Below are positions 48,368 through 59,950 of a stretch of 64,000 nucleotides of DNA, piece after piece. The DNA lies in assembly GCA_050633305.1 (NCBI GenBank), contig JBOEGF010000014.1, positions 96,001 to 160,000 of the forward strand, written 5' to 3'. Position 1 is the stretch's first letter; each line of letters starts with the position of its first letter. The notes under the pieces are model-generated. The model saw only the letters and a program-made list of their open reading frames with translations. It was not told the DNA's origin and made no database searches. Both the position numbers and the translations under genes were made by a program. This stretch comes from Nannocystales bacterium. Lineage in GTDB: Bacteria > Myxococcota_A > Polyangia > Nannocystales > Nannocystaceae.

Positions 48368-48802
48368 TCAGGCGCGCTTGATCGGCAGCACCCGCGGGAG
48401 TTCGTCGCGAAGCAGCAACTCGCGGAGCGCCGCGACGTCGATGTTCCACGGGCCGAAGTCGAGCGTCTCGCAGAGACCGTCGAGGTGGCGTTGTGCGCCG
48501 CGGCGGTGACTTGCGACGCCGCGTTCGGAGCCATCGCGCCGTTTCACGTGGGCCGCCGTCGTTCGGATGAGCGCCCGAACGAGGGATTCGAAAGGGGAGC
48601 CATCTTCAGCGACGTGCCAAACATGCTCCCAAGCTTCGTGCGCTTCCCAGAAGTAATCCGCGTGAAAGAGGTCGACGCCGCCTGCGAACAGGTCTTGGGT
48701 GCTCCACAGCTGAGGTCCGGCCTCCTCGGGCCGCGTGCCGTACCCCGGCCGATACGGCGCGTGCTCGGGGAGTGGGCGCTGGGGGAGCAGCCGGCGGGGC
48801 AT
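48368..48802 (-). CDS. DUF309 domain protein
   Basis: GVDLFHADYFWEAHEAWEHVW. Confidence 0.85.
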   Translation of the reverse strand: MPRRLLPQRPLPEHAPYRPGYGTRPEEAGPQLWSTQDLFAGGVDLFHADYFWEAHEAWEHVWHVAEDGSPFESLVRALIRTTAAHVKRRDGSERGVASHRRGAQRHLDGLCETLDFGPWNIDVAALRELLLRDELPRVLPIKRA

Positions 48803-48804
48803 GG

Positions 48805-49089
48805 CTAGTCCTCGACCTCGACACCTTTCCAAAACGCGACGTGGTCCTTGATCTCGCTCGCGGCCGCTTTTGGATTCGGGTAGGTCCACGCGGCGTTCTC
48901 ATTGACCTGACCGGCGACCTCGAGGCTGTAGTAGCTCGCATCGCCTTTCCAGGGACAATGGCTCCGGTGCTCCGTCGCCTTGAAGTGTTCTTGCTTCAGA
49001 GAGTCGGCGGGGAAGTAGTGGTTGCCCTCGACGACCACGGTCGCATCGCTTTCGGCGAGGAGGGTTCCGTTCCAGGTTGCGCGTGCCAT
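48805..49089 (-). CDS. DUF427 domain protein
   Basis: ATWNGTLLAESD..VEGNHYFP, CPWKGDASYY and AAWTYP.PK. Confidence 0.9.
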   Translation of the reverse strand: MARATWNGTLLAESDATVVVEGNHYFPADSLKQEHFKATEHRSHCPWKGDASYYSLEVAGQVNENAAWTYPNPKAAASEIKDHVAFWKGVEVED

Positions 49090-49272
49090 GCCTTCGGGAG
49101 CGTACGCGGCTGGGGCGAAGTTACGGCAGGGTCCGGCGGGGAAGGCGGGTCGGGTCGCGAGGCCGGCAGCCGCGCGGTCGCCCGGGGAGCGTGGGCATCG
49201 CGCCAGAGCCCGCATTCGGCCGTGAAATGGCGTTGTCGTCGCCGCAGCCCAGGTATGGGGTACCCTCGGGCT

Positions 49273-50172
49273 ATGGATTCGATGCAGCGCTACACAGCGC
49301 CTTGTCTTGCCGTGATGCTGAGCCTGGGGTGTGGGGACCCCGATTCAGCGGGGGAGGATACCGACACTTCCGACGCCGGGACCGGCTCCGAGTCGACGTC
49401 GGCCGATGGACCGACGGGCGGAACCGACACGCAAACCGACACGGCAAACGAAGACGGCTCCACAGACGGCTCATCGGCCGATGAAACCGGTGACTCGACG
49501 GATGACCCGACCGAAGGCGCTTCTGACTGCGACTTCTCCGAGGACTTTGAAGGTGTGGCCAACGGAGATCCGTGGCCGGCGACTTGGGTGCCAGTTGGAG
49601 GGGTCGCGTTGGCCGACGTCCAGGATGGCTGGGGTCGGCTCCGGCCAGAGCTCAGCGACTACTCGCTTGCACGGATGGTGACGTTCATCGACTGTCCAGA
49701 GATCGACACGTCGCTGACGTTCATGTTCACCGATCAAGATACGCAAGGCGTCGGGTTGTATGCCCGACAAAACGGCGGACACTTGCGCGAGACCGATCCG
49801 TTTGGCGAAGGGTATGCCGCGTTCTCCGAGTCGTTTCGCGACCCCGCGGGCATCGGCGCCTGGAGAGAGGTCGAGGGCCAAGAGCAGCGGATCGACAACA
49901 CCGAGCGCTTCGACATCCAAGCGAACGTGGCGTACCGGATGCGTCTTCGTGTGACGCAAGTGGATGACGCGACGAGCTTGCTGCAAGGAAAAATCTGGGC
50001 GCTCTCGGATTCGGAGCCCGATGCGTGGACGGTCGAGCGGATGGACAACACGGCGTCACTCCAGGGAGTGGGCGGCGCGCTCGCGGTGGACGCTTGGGCG
50101 CGTGCTGCGGCTCAAGGCAGCGCTGCTGCCGACTTGTTGGTCGACGATATCGTCTCGGCAGCTGCGGACTGA
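49273..50172 (+). CDS. Hypothetical lipoprotein (tandem paralog A)
   Basis: Lipobox SLGC and D/T/S linker. C-terminal domain starts CDFSEDFEG..WP..W. Confidence 0.78.
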   Translation: MDSMQRYTAPCLAVMLSLGCGDPDSAGEDTDTSDAGTGSESTSADGPTGGTDTQTDTANEDGSTDGSSADETGDSTDDPTEGASDCDFSEDFEGVANGDPWPATWVPVGGVALADVQDGWGRLRPELSDYSLARMVTFIDCPEIDTSLTFMFTDQDTQGVGLYARQNGGHLRETDPFGEGYAAFSESFRDPAGIGAWREVEGQEQRIDNTERFDIQANVAYRMRLRVTQVDDATSLLQGKIWALSDSEPDAWTVERMDNTASLQGVGGALAVDAWARAAAQGSAAADLLVDDIVSAAAD

Positions 50173-50260
50173 AGACTGACCCAAAATGCGACGATGTCGG
50201 GGTGACCCCGACGTCAGGTCGCCCCGACGTTCCTGGGCGTTGTTCGGGTACCATCGAGAC

Positions 50261-51418
50261 GTGGATTGGGACGCCTGGTTCGCGGCGCGGAGCACCCCAT
50301 GTCTCCTCGCCGTACTCCTCGTAGCCTGCGATGCCGGGGCCGTCCCGTCCCGAGCGGACACCAGCTCCGGAACGACGGGCGCGGACCCTCTTTTTTCGTC
50401 CTCGACGACAGTCCCCAGCACCAGCACGGACGGCACATCCGAGGTCGAGAGCACGACCGGCGGGGGGCAATCGCCGACCGAGCCCGGCACCGCGACCGGG
50501 AGCATGACGACACACGGGACGACGTCCGAGGGCAGCACAGGCACGGGGGATGAAACGACGACGGGCAGGGAAACCCGCGGTGGGGGGACCAGCGGTTCCT
50601 CGACCGAGTCGTCATCCTCAACTTCGGCCGTGACGTCGACGACGAGCGAGACGACGACGAGCGAGACGACCGCGGGCGGGACGAGTACGGGCGGGACGAG
50701 TACGGGCGGGACGACAGCGGGCGAGACGAGTACGGGCGAGGTCCCGACCGGCACGACCGGTGAGGACGACGACCCGTGCACCTTCAGTGAGGACTTCGAG
50801 GGCTACGCCGACGGTTCGCCGTGGCCTCCGGGTTGGACCAGCAGCGGCGGAGTCGAGCTCGCGGACATCGAAGGCGGGTGGGCCCGGCTTCGACCCTTAC
50901 TCACGGACTACTCCCTTGGGCGGATGGTTCGCGCGCTCCCGTGTGTCGAGCCTGATGTATCGCTCACCTTCATGTTCACGGCGGCCGAGGCCCAGGGCAT
51001 CGGGCTGTACACTCGTCACAACGGTAGCTACCTCCTCGAGGGGGTCCCACCGGGACGGGGCTACTCGGCCTTCGCGGAGTCGTTCCGAGATCCGCACGGC
51101 ATCGGCGTGTGGCGTGAAGTCGGGGGGACCGAGCAACAGCTCGCGCATCAGCCTGCAACGGTCGAGGCGGATGTGGAGTATCGCATGCGCTACCGTGTCA
51201 CCCAGCAGGATCCGTACACAGCGCTGCTCCAGGCCAAGTTGTGGCCGGTCGGTGAGCCCGAACCGGCGGATTGGATGGTGGAGAGCACGGACGACGCGCT
51301 GTCGCTCCAAGCCGTGTCGGGCCGGATGACGGTGGATGCGTGGGTCAGTGAGGAGTTCAACGGCCCTGTGGCACCCGACTTGCTGATCGATGACATTGTG
51401 GTGGCCCCGGCGTTGTAA
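50261..51418 (+). CDS. Hypothetical lipoprotein (tandem paralog B)
   Basis: GTG start after TACCAT-N6. Lipobox LVAC and long T/S/G linker. C-terminal domain (CTFSEDFEG..WP..W) is homologous to paralog A. Confidence 0.78.
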   Translation: MDWDAWFAARSTPCLLAVLLVACDAGAVPSRADTSSGTTGADPLFSSSTTVPSTSTDGTSEVESTTGGGQSPTEPGTATGSMTTHGTTSEGSTGTGDETTTGRETRGGGTSGSSTESSSSTSAVTSTTSETTTSETTAGGTSTGGTSTGGTTAGETSTGEVPTGTTGEDDDPCTFSEDFEGYADGSPWPPGWTSSGGVELADIEGGWARLRPLLTDYSLGRMVRALPCVEPDVSLTFMFTAAEAQGIGLYTRHNGSYLLEGVPPGRGYSAFAESFRDPHGIGVWREVGGTEQQLAHQPATVEADVEYRMRYRVTQQDPYTALLQAKLWPVGEPEPADWMVESTDDALSLQAVSGRMTVDAWVSEEFNGPVAPDLLIDDIVVAPAL

Positions 51419-55810: not shown

Positions 55811-55858
55811 GCGGGGAACCTTCCGCGGTGTGGCGAGCACATCCACTTCGGGGTGGGG

Positions 55859-57034
55859 ATGGTGCGGAAGACGAAGTACACGGCTGTAGGGATACTGGTG
55901 GCCTTGATGGGGTGCGGTGACGACGACGCCCGGGAGATGGGTTCGTTCACCCAGACCGGGCTCACAGGAGTCGGCGGCGCGACCGGAGGGGATGGAGGCG
56001 AAGACTCCACCTCGGGTGGCGAGGACGAGTCTGGGGGAACCGGTCTCAAGTTGGATGTCGAGGCGATGACGGCCGGCGACGAGGGCGGGCCCAGCGGCTG
56101 CGAGTCGCTCGTCGACGAAGCCGACGTTGGCCCGAAGCCGCAGGACATCATCGTGGTGGTCGACAATTCGGGCTCGATGTCCGCCGAAGCCGACTTCGTT
56201 CAGCAGCAGATGAACTCGTTCTCGGTGCAGATTGGCGCCGCGAACATCGACTCACACATCGTGCTGATCTCCGCGTACCCGACCTCGGACGCGGGCGTTT
56301 GCATCGATCCACCGTTGGGTTCTGGAGGGTGCCCCGCCGACGACAACAACGCACCCGAGTTCGTCCACATTGGGGCCTCGGTCGGGAGCAACGACGCGCT
56401 CCAGCAGATCCTCTCGCGCTACCCCGAGTACAGCCAGTATCTGCGCCAGACCGCTGTCACCCACATTGTTGTGGTCACGGATGACGATTCTGACCTGGGC
56501 GCACCGGAGTTCATCTCCGCGATGGCGGGGCTCTCTCCTCACCTCTCCGAGTTCAAGTTTCACGGGATCATCGCCCCCGAAGACCTGATTCAGGCCTGCC
56601 TCAACGGAACGACATGCTGTGGGCTCGCGGCTGACCAAGGGACCGTCTATCAGCAGCTCATCGCGACCACGGGCGGGGTCGAGGGCAACCTGTGCGAGCA
56701 GCAGTTTCAGCCGATCTTCCAGGCGGTCGCGCAGCAGGTCATTGGGGGTGCCACGCTCTCGTGTAGCTGGGAAGTCCCCGAACCGCCCCCGGGAGAGGAA
56801 TTCGACAAGGACGAGGTGAACATCGAGTTCGATGACGGCCAGGGGGGCACGTTGCAGATCGGGCGCGTCGACGATCCGTCGTTGTGCGGGGGTGTTGCCG
56901 ACGGCTGGTACTACGACGACCCGAACGCTCCGTCCGTCATCACCGTCTGCCCGCAGACGTGCACCAAAATCCAAGGCTTTGCGCAGGCCGAGATCTCGAT
57001 CATCTTCGGCTGCGCGACGATCCCTGCGGGCTAG
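55859..57034 (+). CDS. vWA-domain lipoprotein
   Basis: Lipobox LMGC. MIDAS DIIVVVDNSGSM and VVVTDDDS. C-terminal GWYYDDP..ITVCPQTC..IIFGCAT. Confidence 0.82.
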   Translation: MVRKTKYTAVGILVALMGCGDDDAREMGSFTQTGLTGVGGATGGDGGEDSTSGGEDESGGTGLKLDVEAMTAGDEGGPSGCESLVDEADVGPKPQDIIVVVDNSGSMSAEADFVQQQMNSFSVQIGAANIDSHIVLISAYPTSDAGVCIDPPLGSGGCPADDNNAPEFVHIGASVGSNDALQQILSRYPEYSQYLRQTAVTHIVVVTDDDSDLGAPEFISAMAGLSPHLSEFKFHGIIAPEDLIQACLNGTTCCGLAADQGTVYQQLIATTGGVEGNLCEQQFQPIFQAVAQQVIGGATLSCSWEVPEPPPGEEFDKDEVNIEFDDGQGGTLQIGRVDDPSLCGGVADGWYYDDPNAPSVITVCPQTCTKIQGFAQAEISIIFGCATIPAG

Positions 57035-57108: not shown

Positions 57109-57489
57109 CTAGCTCATCAAGCCGCTGAGGACGGTGCGTGCCCGGTCATCGTCCATGCCGATGGCTTTGGCGACCGCGCGCAGGAGGTCGTCCTCCTCCT
57201 CGAGCACGAAGCCGTCCGCACTCGCGACTCGGAACGCGGCGGTGAGCACCTTGGCCTGGGCGTCCGCCCCGAGATCGCTGGGAAGGCATCCCAGGACCTC
57301 CTGTGGACTCCGCCCTTGGGACTGTGCCTCGGCGGCATCCCGCGCCAGCTCCCCGTCCGGGAGCGCTCGGCCGGTGAATTCGTCGTACGCTCGTTCGGCT
57401 GCCGCCACCTCGTCGGGATCGACGTCTTCGTCGGCGACGATCATGGCCAGCAGGACTCCTCGCAAACAGGGCCCAAGAGAATCGCTCAC
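57109..57489 (-). CDS. TerB-family (tellurite resistance-like) protein
   Basis: AMIVADEDVDPDEV and VASADGFVLEEEDDLLRAVAKAIGM. Confidence 0.75.
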   Translation of the reverse strand: MSDSLGPCLRGVLLAMIVADEDVDPDEVAAAERAYDEFTGRALPDGELARDAAEAQSQGRSPQEVLGCLPSDLGADAQAKVLTAAFRVASADGFVLEEEDDLLRAVAKAIGMDDDRARTVLSGLMS

Positions 57490-57509: not shown

Positions 57510-57515
57510 TAGGCT
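57510..57515 (+). promoter_or_regulatory. Putative -10 element (TAGGCT) 6 nt before the ATG; leaderless-type promoter
   Basis: The same geometry occurs before array copies 2-4: TACGCT 57900, TACGCT 58372 and TAGTCT 58906. Confidence 0.5.
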
Positions 57516-57521
57516 GGTTGC

Positions 57522-57887
57522 ATGGCTGCAAGTCTGGTCGTCTGTTCGTCGTGCGCGGTACACGTAATACAGGGCGAGGAGCGGTGTCCACATTGTGGTG
57601 GAGCGGTTCGTTCGGATGTGACCCGTTCTCTGGGACGGGCAACGGGGGTGGTGCTGGCAGGATTGGTCCTTGCGGGCTGCCAGATCGAGCCCGAGTACGG
57701 TGTGCCACTCACCGCCACCACGGGCGGAGACACGGACACGGACACGGACACGGACACCGAGCCGTCGAGTACGACCATGGGAGGCGAGGGCACGGCGAGC
57801 ACGGGCTCCTCGTCGACCGGCGCGGGGTCCGGTGGAAGCACGAGCATCAGTCCCGACTACGGTGTTCCGACGACGGGCGAGTCGTAG
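57522..57887 (+). CDS. Zn-ribbon/lipobox/YGxP-motif protein, array copy 1
   Basis: CSSC-x10-CPHC, then LVLAGC, with PEYGVP and ISPDYGVPTTG. Confidence 0.8.
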   Translation: MAASLVVCSSCAVHVIQGEERCPHCGGAVRSDVTRSLGRATGVVLAGLVLAGCQIEPEYGVPLTATTGGDTDTDTDTDTEPSSTTMGGEGTASTGSSSTGAGSGGSTSISPDYGVPTTGES

Positions 57888-57912
57888 CGAGCGATTTGCT
57901 ACGCTACGCGGC

Positions 57913-58347
57913 GTGGCTTTGACTGCGTGTTCCTCATGCTCCTTGTACATCCGTCGCGATGAGATCGTGTGCCCGCATTGCGGGTCCGAACACGGTCCGA
58001 ATCGGGCTCCTGTGGCACGGACCGCCGCGGCGGTTCTGATGGGCCTGGCGCTCGCCGGGTGCCCCGCCAATGAGGACGATGAGGACACGGGGGACTCGAT
58101 CGCGACGTCGGCTCTGTACGGTGGTCCGACGACCGACACCGCGACGGAGGGTGGCTCAGGCACGACGAGCGGCACGGACTCCGCGACGTCGAGCAGCGGG
58201 TCTTCCGGGAGCTCGAGCACGACAGCGGCCGACACCAGTGGGACATCGAGCTCGACCGGCGGCGAAACCGACACCGACGGGAGCACGGGGTCGGGAAGCA
58301 GCACGGGCATCAGTCCCGACTACGGCGTGCCGACGACGGGTGAATAG
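57913..58347 (+). CDS. Zn-ribbon/lipobox/YGxP-motif protein, array copy 2
   Basis: GTG start (ALTACSSC-x10-CPHC), then RTAAAVLMGLALAGC, with ALYGGP and ISPDYGVPTTG. Confidence 0.8.
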   Translation: MALTACSSCSLYIRRDEIVCPHCGSEHGPNRAPVARTAAAVLMGLALAGCPANEDDEDTGDSIATSALYGGPTTDTATEGGSGTTSGTDSATSSSGSSGSSSTTAADTSGTSSSTGGETDTDGSTGSGSSTGISPDYGVPTTGE

Positions 58348-58383
58348 CCTCGCACTGCACCATCCGGCTGCTACGCTGTCACT

Positions 58384-58893
58384 ATGGCTTTGGTAGCGTG
58401 CTCATCTTGTTCTGTCTACGTCCGGCGTGACGAGTCTGGTTGCCCCAACTGCGGTGCCGATCTGAGCGGTGCCGGCGGTCCTGTCGTTCGTACCGCGGCG
58501 GCGGTGCTCATGGGACTGACGTTGGCGGGTTGCCCCGCGCCCGAGCCTGAGGATGAGGGCGCTTCGTCTTCAGCAACGGACACCAGCTCACAGACGGATT
58601 CGTCTTCGAGCACGACGGGTGTTTCGGGGACCACCAGCCCCGCCACGATGTCGTCGGGCTCTGCGTACGGGGTCCCGCCCACGCAGAGCGGCACCGGAGA
58701 AGAATCGGGTCCGCCCGATACCACCGGGCCAGGCACCGATGGCTCCACGGGCACCGACACCGACACCGACGCAAGCACGAGCACCGGCTCGGCGACCGAT
58801 ACTGACACGGGTACCACCGGTGGCACCGATTCAGCGACGGAGACCGGGAGCACGGGCATCAGCCCCGACTACGGCACCCCCCCGACGGGCTGA
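58384..58893 (+). CDS. Zn-ribbon/lipobox/YGxP-motif protein, array copy 3
   Basis: CSSC-x10-CPNC, then RTAAAVLMGLTLAGC, with SAYGVP and ISPDYGTPPTG. Confidence 0.82.
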   Translation: MALVACSSCSVYVRRDESGCPNCGADLSGAGGPVVRTAAAVLMGLTLAGCPAPEPEDEGASSSATDTSSQTDSSSSTTGVSGTTSPATMSSGSAYGVPPTQSGTGEESGPPDTTGPGTDGSTGTDTDTDASTSTGSATDTDTGTTGGTDSATETGSTGISPDYGTPPTG

Positions 58894-58916
58894 GCGGGGA
58901 TGCGATAGTCTCGGGC

Positions 58917-59372
58917 ATGGCTGGCCCACTTATCGTTTGCCCCTCTTGTTCCACGCACGTTTTGGTTCGTGACGCCGGATGTCCGCACTGCGGCGCGACC
59001 GTGCGCAGTGGTGGTCAGGTGCTCGGTCGTACCGCGGGGGCGATGCTCATGGGGCTGACGCTCGCCGGGTGTCCCGCATCCGACGACACGAGCGAGACGA
59101 TGGGCAACGGGGAAACCAGCACCACCAGCACGCAGCCGACCTCGTCCACAACGGACGACAGCGGCAGTACGAGCACGTTTGATGTCAGTAGTGGGCCCGT
59201 GGGCGAAGCCTACGGAAACCCCGACACCTCCGATACGCTGGGGACCAGCTCAGGCGGCGACACCGACGGGACCAGCTCGGGTTCGAGCGGTTCCAGCAGC
59301 GGCAGTGGCTCGGACAGTGGGTCCAGTACCGGGATCAGCCCGGACTACGGCGTGCCGACCACTGGTAAGTAG
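58917..59372 (+). CDS. Zn-ribbon/lipobox/YGxP-motif protein, array copy 4
   Basis: CPSC-x10-CPHC, then RTAGAMLMGLTLAGC, with EAYGNP and ISPDYGVPTTG. Confidence 0.82.
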   Translation: MAGPLIVCPSCSTHVLVRDAGCPHCGATVRSGGQVLGRTAGAMLMGLTLAGCPASDDTSETMGNGETSTTSTQPTSSTTDDSGSTSTFDVSSGPVGEAYGNPDTSDTLGTSSGGDTDGTSSGSSGSSSGSGSDSGSSTGISPDYGVPTTGK

Positions 59373-59443
59373 GCCTTCCTCCCTACCGTCTAGGTCCGTC
59401 GTGGGCTGGTGCTTGGCATCGGCTCCATGCGACCCTCCTACCC

Positions 59444-59950
59444 ATGGCTGGCCCTCTCATTGTTTGCGCTGCTTGCTCGTCCCATGTCCTGACTTCCGAC
59501 AAGGCCTGCCCGCATTGCGGAGCGGCGGTCCACGATGGCAAGGGGCAGGTCTTGGGGCGCACCGCAGCGGCAGTACTCATGGGGCTTGCGCTCGCGGGTT
59601 GCCCAGCGGATGACGACTCGGGCGATTCGATGGGCGGTGGGGACTCGTCATCCTCCGCGAGCACCGACCCTGGGAGTTCGGGGCCCAGCGAGGGAAGCAG
59701 CAGCACCGCTTCGTCGACCACCGCCGGATCGACGGCCGACACCTTCGCTGAGTCGGGTGCGCAGTCAGCCTACGGTACGCCAGACACCGAGACGTTCGGC
59801 ACGACCGACATGACCGAGTCGGACACGACCAGCTCGGGCGGCGACACCGACACCGACACCGACGCCGGAACTGACACCGAAGCGGGCGGCACGGACCCAG
59901 GCACGACCACGACCGCTCCGCTGTACGGCGCCGCGCCCAGCGACGAGTAG
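59444..59950 (+). CDS. Zn-ribbon/lipobox/YGxP-motif protein, array copy 5
   Basis: CAAC-x10-CPHC, then RTAAAVLMGLALAGC, with SAYGTP and PLYGAAP. Confidence 0.82.
   Translation: MAGPLIVCAACSSHVLTSDKACPHCGAAVHDGKGQVLGRTAAAVLMGLALAGCPADDDSGDSMGGGDSSSSASTDPGSSGPSEGSSSTASSTTAGSTADTFAESGAQSAYGTPDTETFGTTDMTESDTTSSGGDTDTDTDAGTDTEAGGTDPGTTTTAPLYGAAPSDE

Follow-up and report, generated by a model that had tools for sequence, protein, structure and literature searches.

What is encoded by the five short genes that stand in tandem at positions 57522 to 59950 of a 64,000-nucleotide stretch of Nannocystales bacterium DNA (assembly GCA_050633305.1, contig JBOEGF010000014.1, positions 96,001 to 160,000; this whole stretch is referred to here as the window), and which enzyme might act on their products? 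The predicted proteins open with a four-cysteine ribbon, continue with a hydrophobic stretch that ends in a lipobox, and close with an acidic tail in which the tyrosines are followed by glycine (YG motifs). We estimate a probability of about 0.65 for the explanation as a whole, by which the five genes encode substrates of P0001, a splicease-clade radical S-adenosylmethionine (SAM)/SPASM enzyme, and ribbon-guided splicing is followed by lipid-anchored export. Taken by itself, an action of P0001 on the array proteins is very probable, and it is probable, to a lesser degree, that the reaction is tyramine splicing, in which the loss of C8H9NO (135.07 Da) leaves an alpha-keto-beta-amide.

A reading of the window made from its letters only (the sequence-only reading) had described a five-gene array with this architecture, and all five open reading frames (ORFs) proved to be present, on the forward strand and with that anatomy. 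Copy 1 (57522-57887, 121 residues) has its ribbon, of the form CxxC-x10-CPxC, at 57543-57596 (Cys8, Cys11, Cys22 and Cys25), its lipobox Cys at residue 53 and the motifs EYGVP (Tyr59) and DYGVP (Tyr113). The same ribbon, a predicted enzyme-docking module, opens copy 2 (57913-58347, 144 residues; Cys50, LYGGP at Tyr69, DYGVP at Tyr137), for which the GTG start at 57913 is supported by the alignment and by an upstream TAnnnT element, copy 3 (58384-58893, 169 residues; Cys50, AYGVP at Tyr95, DYGTP at Tyr163), copy 4 (58917-59372, 151 residues; Cys52, AYGNP at Tyr99, DYGVP at Tyr144) and copy 5 (59444-59950, 168 residues; Cys53, AYGTP at Tyr110, LYGAA at Tyr161). The genes are separated by 25, 36, 23 and 71 nucleotides. 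In all five, the order is ribbon, hydrophobic stretch (mean Kyte-Doolittle value of 0.96 to 1.64 over 14 residues), LAGC with its Cys at residues 50-53, and an acidic tail of 69 to 120 residues that is 67-75% Ser, Thr, Gly or Asp, with a net charge of -11 to -23. Our recount confirmed that all 10 tail tyrosines lie in YG and in the motifs that had been listed (p ~3e-8, given that Gly makes up 17% of the tails; p ~2e-4 when only five sites are taken as independent), while two further tyrosines (residue 12 of copies 2 and 3) sit inside the ribbon and are not YG. The description of these motifs as YGxP holds at nine sites and fails at the last site of copy 5, which reads YGAAP. Conservation of the ISPDYG block of copies 1-4 at the protein level is borne out by 24 synonymous versus 6 non-synonymous codon differences (pairwise counts). 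None of the five precursors has a Pfam or NCBIfam match above cut-off, and a search of the ESM Atlas returned only unnamed Myxococcota clusters and one protein automatically named as a zinc-ribbon protein.

The array belongs to a larger family, of which the 11-Mb host genome carries 21 intact genes and one truncated member (L038; G000:C16:57035-57247) that keeps the whole ribbon and loses the frame ahead of the hydrophobic stretch. In the host, YG occurs in 20 of the 21 intact genes and accounts for 36 of their 47 post-ribbon tyrosines. A profile of the leader only, run against 1.84 billion representative sequences, gave 4008 matches (E<=0.001), and unrelated multi-ribbon proteins make up many of those listed; from the 150 matches listed we kept the 106 that combine a single ribbon, a lipobox-like Cys and a length under 300 residues, and dropped 44, making no use of YG in the choice. 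In this set of listed homologues, Gly follows 215 of 237 tail tyrosines, and at least one YG is present in 102 of the 106 proteins, so that the absence of YG from homologues, which had been named in advance as grounds for abandoning the idea, did not occur. For comparison, ribbon-less tether lipoproteins of the host genome have YG at 2 of 16 tyrosines and in 2 of 75 proteins, and the genome-wide frequency is 9.4%. The claim of exactly two motifs is true of the array and not of the family, in which 4, 28, 49, 15, 6 and 4 of the 106 proteins have 0, 1, 2, 3, 4 and 5 YG, respectively. The residue ahead of the 215 YG sites is most often Glu (76), Asp (55), Ala (43) or Leu (19), and Pro stands third after the Tyr at 161 of them.

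The radical SAM/SPASM enzyme that such substrates would require was expected in the genome and outside the window, and both expectations proved right. A search of the host genome with TIGR03913 gave five strong matches (1e-108 to 1e-130; the next is 1e-15), of which four directly adjoin a family gene. The fifth, P0001 (419 residues; contig positions 165345-166604, minus strand, converging on the array), ends 9.4 kb from copy 5 and 5.3 kb past the right edge of the window; the 64-kb window itself has no splicease-type radical SAM gene. P0001 matches TIGR03913 at 5e-125 (417.5 bits, against a cut-off of 591.75), in an alignment that ends at position 389 of 477, and TIGR04103, which we take to be the same as IPR026482, PlpX's subclass, at 3e-120 (401.5 bits, against a cut-off of 725); the next-best family is at 2e-45 (155 bits). 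PlpX has been assigned to IPR026482 (PMC11002830). These family profiles place P0001 in the PlpX clade of radical SAM/SPASM enzymes. With a Nostoc TIGR04103 enzyme, whose neighbours are a Nif11 precursor that bears YG and a small ORF downstream, it shares 43.6% identity. The CxxxCxxC motif and the SPASM cysteines are invariant in 111 homologues, and close homologues of the enzyme are named from Plesiocystis, Enhygromyxa and Paraliomyxa. An enzyme scan of the sequence collection gave 3 loci. Among solved structures, a sequence search reached a best E of ~1e-15 and found no splicease complex.

The proposal that homologues of the array genes neighbour or co-occur with radical SAM/SPASM genes is strongly upheld by gene linkage. 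At least 57 of 78 enzyme matches (E<1e-100, in 40 genomes including the host) have a leader match within 2 kb, where ~0.3 would be expected; this count is a floor, made with 150 of the 187 leader matches listed, and it includes related genomes, by which some dependence through kinship remains. Among the matches listed, the corresponding control value for weaker radical SAM matches is 1 of 19, and a rebuilt profile found neighbours at six further enzyme loci. In a sample of the phylum, the enzyme is present in 44 of 151 genomes searched, and of 30 loci returned (one our own) the other 29 have a ribbon-leader gene in 24 cases by hidden Markov model within 1.5-kb flanks and in 27 by eye. Conversely, 17 of 19 other genomes of the phylum with a leader match at E<=1e-6 have an enzyme match; of the two exceptions, G088 (16 leader matches and no enzyme match) contains two enzyme genes that are frame-split and both stand next to precursors, and the leader match of G051 is partial and lies within an 873-residue frame. 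Only 67 of the 150 leader matches listed lie within 4 kb of an enzyme, and many family genes must therefore be served from afar.

The maturase had been expected to act in trans, and this stands for the host only in the sense that P0001 is separated from the array, since its gene seems to be a displaced neighbour: in four genomes of the same genus (G003, G004, G005 and G006), a TerB-family gene, one to three array-type genes and a converging enzyme gene (84-90% identical to P0001) follow each other without interruption. In the window, this TerB-family gene (57109-57489, minus strand; PF05099, E 9e-12) is divergent from copy 1 and is the conserved left neighbour that anchors the synteny. The distance from array to enzyme is 7.3 kb in G002 and 9.4 kb in the host, and in G001 they are on separate contigs. 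Counterparts of copy 4, ~63-72% identical, were found at the syntenic locus in G002, G003 and G005, and counterparts of copy 5 in G001, G002, G004 and G006. In a FastTree phylogeny of the enzymes, for which a weaker match supplied the root, the clade of P0001 has a support of 1.0 and its members' neighbours bear AYG[STNI]P, DYGVP and LYG[AS]A, the motifs of the array; the remaining clades pair with KYGAP, CYG, Cys-rich FYGGC or YAGP precursors. We used this pairing, which shared ancestry alone can yield, only for the assignment of partners, and from it and the synteny we infer that P0001 is the cognate enzyme of the array.

The sequence-only reading had also cast the zinc ribbon as a recognition element, and this proposal gains support from natural fusions and from a predicted complex. 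The four ribbon cysteines are invariant in 76 of 76 aligned homologues, and Pfam zinc-ribbon families match the five ribbons weakly, all below cut-off. The five ribbons also weakly match positions 426-456 of TIGR03913, and the leader profile matches 4 of 5 annotated enzymes from outside the myxobacteria (E 5e-10 to 4e-8 among 15 proteins): the ribbon is C-terminal in two Azospirillum enzymes and one Aureibacter enzyme, all of them beside DUF1843 peptides, and N-terminal in a Tropicibacter enzyme. With the same profile, it was found in none of 79 myxobacterial enzyme frames and not in the Nostoc enzyme. The fusion of the ribbon to outside enzymes and its lack in the myxobacterial ones suggest that one of the two partners carries it, the substrate or the enzyme. 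When P0001 was co-folded with the first 55 residues of copy 1 together with Zn and two clusters, the score was 0.85, compared with 0.01 for the best of 3 controls; the mark applied lets through 116 of 157 solved pairs and 2 of 215 mismatched ones, a calibration that is only rough for the alignments and ligands used. At least 31% of contacts recur between runs, and the partner has a predicted local distance difference test (pLDDT) value of at least 62. Confident contacts involve the ribbon only (residues 2-5, 7, 11-14, 16 and 23-24) and enzyme residues 251-257, 265-269 and 336-340. Ribbon contact residues are mostly kept (Leu5 in 71, His14 in 67, with Tyr in 7 others, and Pro23 in 73 of 76 homologues), and Gly252, Glu255, Tyr336 and Tyr337 of the enzyme are conserved in 111 of 111. 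Because the ribbon is fused to TIGR03913 enzymes and the predicted complex places it on P0001, it is probably a docking module.

Other observations on the fused enzymes are as follows. In the AlphaFold model of one of them, P0128, the ribbon region has a pLDDT of ~62-68 and the linker one below 50, with no contacts reported, and a fold search with this model found distant enzymes only (12-22% identity). A homologue search with the fused C-terminal region gave 7 proteins and is too insensitive to gauge the spread of the fusion. A resemblance of the small, Y-like ORF downstream of the Nostoc enzyme to the C-terminal ribbon-helix of the Azospirillum enzymes was considered and dropped, as BLASTP gave no alignment. 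The Tropicibacter enzyme, which is encoded on a plasmid (L185:2680-4302), follows its N-terminal ribbon with a leader-like hydrophobic stretch, has no YG precursor that we saw nearby and groups with the myxobacterial enzyme of L100 (support 1.0). The enzyme of L208:1390-2721 ends in KYGAPP, a motif that recurs where the next frame closes and might be a self-substrate or a duplicated fragment.

Export with lipidation also appears likely from the sequences, if slightly less so than docking. All five copies have a hydrophobic stretch that ends in the lipobox Cys, the host genome has 4 lgt and 3 lspA matches over cut-off, as would be expected for lipoproteins, and 75 of 76 aligned homologues retain the Cys at position 53. 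Many homologues lengthen the tail by Cys-rich or PF11617 domains; of 9 longer homologues scanned, 4 have PF11617 motifs in their tails.

A scheme that joins these parts would begin in the cytoplasm, where the N-terminal ribbon would bind P0001 where its barrel meets the SPASM domain and recruit or activate it, much as PlpY or the RhaA leader does, a step suggested by the fusions and the model. A radical SAM enzyme requires SAM and reduced clusters, and the splicing of one or both YG sites should therefore precede export. The hydrophobic stretch and LAGC, judged from sequence, would then act as an export signal; Lgt and signal peptidase II would lipidate the Cys and remove ribbon and signal, and the product would be an acidic envelope tether carrying one or two ketoamides. 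More speculatively, such ketoamides might trap Ser or Cys proteases of the cell itself or of a rival in the envelope, with paralogues varying the residues around the warhead. Inhibition of Ser and Cys proteases is a property of ketoamides and was seen with three synthetic spliceotides (PMC9811515, PMC10849128). A tethered protease trap is our best guess for the product, a covalent attachment handle being the alternative.

Several points weigh against this scheme. P0001 lies under both curated cut-offs, TIGR03913 and TIGR04103; 9.4 kb of unrelated genes intervene between it and the array, and any of the four paralogues could serve instead. The co-fold value is a model's confidence, and Tyr336-Tyr337 is no clean marker of a ribbon partner, since L213 has a ribbon precursor and Ala-Phe at these positions. 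The ~35 residues with the four-Cys ribbon ahead of the hydrophobic stretch depart from the short basic n-region of a lipoprotein. An n-region of this length is far above the norm for signal sequences. The lipobox Cys is missing in 5 of 12 genes of the related G088 array, which argues against universal lipidation. Native PlpXY sites are MYG and LYG (PMC10533398), and the array family has mostly Glu, Asp or Ala ahead of YG; the DYG site of RcsA was unmodified (PMC11626197); and some related enzymes adjoin precursors whose motif is YAGP or YSCP and not YG.

Of the alternatives, the one that survives best, though we consider it unlikely, is that the enzyme carries out other chemistry at or near the Tyr, such as a cross-link or backbone rearrangement, or that only the LYG and AYG sites are spliced and DYG and EYG are binding sites. 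The scores below both family cut-offs, the acidic residue ahead of 131 of the 215 listed YG sites, the unmodified DYG of RcsA and the existence of YAGP and YSCP variants would all be in keeping with it, but the PlpX type is among the two nearest families, with the next family 75 orders of magnitude off, and Gly follows 91% of the listed tail tyrosines, as the known rule for splice sites has it. Slightly less credit is due to a classical RiPP, a peptide that is made on the ribosome and modified after translation, in which ribbon and helix would be only a leader, the Cys would stay unlipidated and proteases would free short soluble ketoamide peptides. Known binary spliceases do use a leader helix, and the long n-region and the missing Cys residues of G088 are of the kind that this would predict. 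Against it are the near-universal Cys of the 76 homologues, the position of the helix outside the confident co-fold contacts (residues not named there are merely uncertain), the frequent Cys-rich or PF11617 ends of the tails, which suit an oxidising compartment, and the fact that inspection by eye recognised no protease-transporter beside the array. It is improbable that the ribbon binds iron, in the manner of rubredoxin, and is a redox partner of the SPASM clusters beyond its use as a handle, a change that would alter the first step of the scheme only: the predicted contacts at enzyme residues 267 and 336-340 adjoin the invariant SPASM Cys271, Cys335 and Cys341, but the ten-residue spacing and the best Pfam matches are those of zinc-ribbon types, and type I spliceases work without such a domain. 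That YGxP stays unmodified and serves ordinary lipoproteins as a binding motif, with an incidental link to the enzyme, would suit the many family genes that lie far from one and is very improbable in view of the observed adjacency, of the enzyme's presence in 18 of the 19 phylum genomes with the leader (the split genes of G088 being counted) and of the ribbon's fusion to homologous enzymes.

How does the proposed splicing of the array by P0001 compare with known systems? The general traits of spliceotide loci are found here: a PlpX-clade enzyme, conserved XYG and gene linkage. Type I systems (PlpA/PlpX/PlpY and PcpAXY of Pleurocapsa; TIGR04103, nif11-class maturase 3; PMC11414181, PMC11002830) resemble the array in their radical SAM/SPASM enzyme, which belongs to the clade of P0001, in their XYG sites, of which a precursor frequently has two, and in an accessory element that binds the enzyme. 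They differ in that the array has no Nif11 leader (neither Pfam nor NCBIfam gave a Nif11 match in the five precursors), P0001 scores under the TIGR04103 cut-off (401.5 vs 725 bits), the accessory element is a separate helical Y protein there and a four-Cys ribbon on the substrate here, and the array has a lipobox export signal, disordered acidic tails and a mostly acidic X. No separate Y protein was noticed by eye beside P0001, no profile search having been made for one. Activation of the respective enzyme has been shown for PlpY and for the RhaA leader, and each also works as a fusion to the enzyme C-terminus (PMC11414181). The binary type II systems of Rheinheimera (RhaXA, RcsXA/RasXA; PMC11414181, PMC11626197) resemble the array in having two components, with the activating element in the substrate leader; this element has been moved to the enzyme C-terminus by engineering (the RhaX-leader fusion), as the ribbon is fused naturally in TIGR03913, but it is a PlpY-like helix and here a predicted metal ribbon.

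TIGR03913/DUF1843 (GDL-motif) systems have the best-scoring family for P0001, the same ribbon, conservation of the predicted docking residues, and peptides that carry a Tyr close to their N-terminus, in YG or another context. Unlike the array, they carry the ribbon on the enzyme C-terminus, and their DUF1843 substrates are 54-70 residues long, without signal or ribbon; P0001 is without the C-terminal extension (417.5 vs 591.75 bits), and Pfam gave no DUF1843 match in the five precursors. The Bacteroidota TIGR04133/TIGR04134 systems also pair a radical SAM/SPASM enzyme with putative lipoproteins, but P0001 scores 145 bits with TIGR04133 vs 425, and the host genome has only two weak TIGR04134 matches, neither of them a family gene. 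We know of no ribbon in these systems. The array and P0001 would thus seem, from their sequences, to work like a binary spliceotide system and to differ from type I, TIGR03913/DUF1843 and TIGR04133/TIGR04134. The survey of Scott et al. 2022 (Chem 8:2659) is reported to count 27 characterised and 939 predicted spliceotide systems (PMC10533398). A survey of PlpX relatives by phylogeny and YG would have caught these enzymes, and we put the chance that it already lists the ribbon-lipobox family at about even, in which case only the ribbon mechanism would stay new. Apart from that survey, the literature searched yielded no description of ribbon-lipobox precursors. The survey is said to distinguish at least five spliceotide types, including III-V.

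A wider reading can be put forward only tentatively and is less likely than not. Myxococcota spliceases would modify envelope lipoproteins and not small peptides; a portable metal ribbon would license the enzyme and, when placed on the substrate, couple modification to export before being cut off; and the same module would be fused to the enzyme in Proteobacteria and Bacteroidota. Arrays of 5 to 14 separately promoted paralogues would display varied tethered ketoamide warheads, also at acidic and Tyr-Ala sites that are unreported in the literature searched, and the elusiveness of native products would be accounted for by their anchoring in membranes; none of this would be in print. If a lipid-anchored class exists, chemists would be pointed to membranes, and the idea is testable in cultured relatives. 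The ribbon would offer a structural handle on splicease switching that mirrors the engineered enzyme-leader fusions of PMC11414181, and its role predicts that TIGR03913 enzymes are naturally leader-independent, which would be of use in protein labelling. Enzyme clades with distinct motifs (KYGAP, CYG, xYGVP, FYGGC, YAGP) would put new splice tags on offer, and the occurrence of the enzyme in 44 of 151 phylum genomes implies that the pathway is common and unannotated.

The family includes variants of several kinds. Enzyme-adjacent precursors with YAGP or YSCP and not YG are found at L033:7008-7457 (G000:C24:121008-121457), L122, L130, L165, L168, L170, L120 and L128; most YAGP cases cluster in one part of the enzyme tree and might represent non-Gly splice sites. 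Subfamilies at L034:6502-7158, L140, L141, L154, L159 and L164 have YG right after the lipobox Cys (CYG), and if these were spliced, the lipid-bearing Cys itself would become the ketoamide residue. At L032:6838-7944 and L035:6903-7937, the YG linker runs into a Cys-rich domain (19 and 27 tail Cys, respectively) that has no Pfam match, and these full-size exported proteins are candidate substrates. The G088 array (L219:8900-16100, G088:C128) has 14 leader matches and converges on a frame-split enzyme gene, in which the split may be an assembly error or the mark of a pseudogene; by eye, most of the 12 genes read there end in a PF11617-like motif.

Within the window, TAnnnT elements stand on the forward strand before copies 1-4, at 57510-57515 (6 nucleotides ahead of copy 1), 57900-57905, 58372-58377 and 58906-58911. 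Such an element lies 5-7 nucleotides ahead of the start in 4 of the 5 copies, and in 13 of the 21 family genes, compared with 0.3% of internal ATGs and 9.6% of crude gene starts. These elements are probably the -10 boxes of separate leaderless transcripts, and their presence ahead of individual copies suggests that the array may not be a single operon. A scan for sigma-70 promoters and terminators found none, and a repeat search detected coding paralogy only. Farther to the left, at 48772-51418 and 55853-57034, lie lipoprotein-like genes with the same acidic Ser/Thr/Gly tether and without the ribbon, two of them tandem paralogues and one with a weak VWA match.

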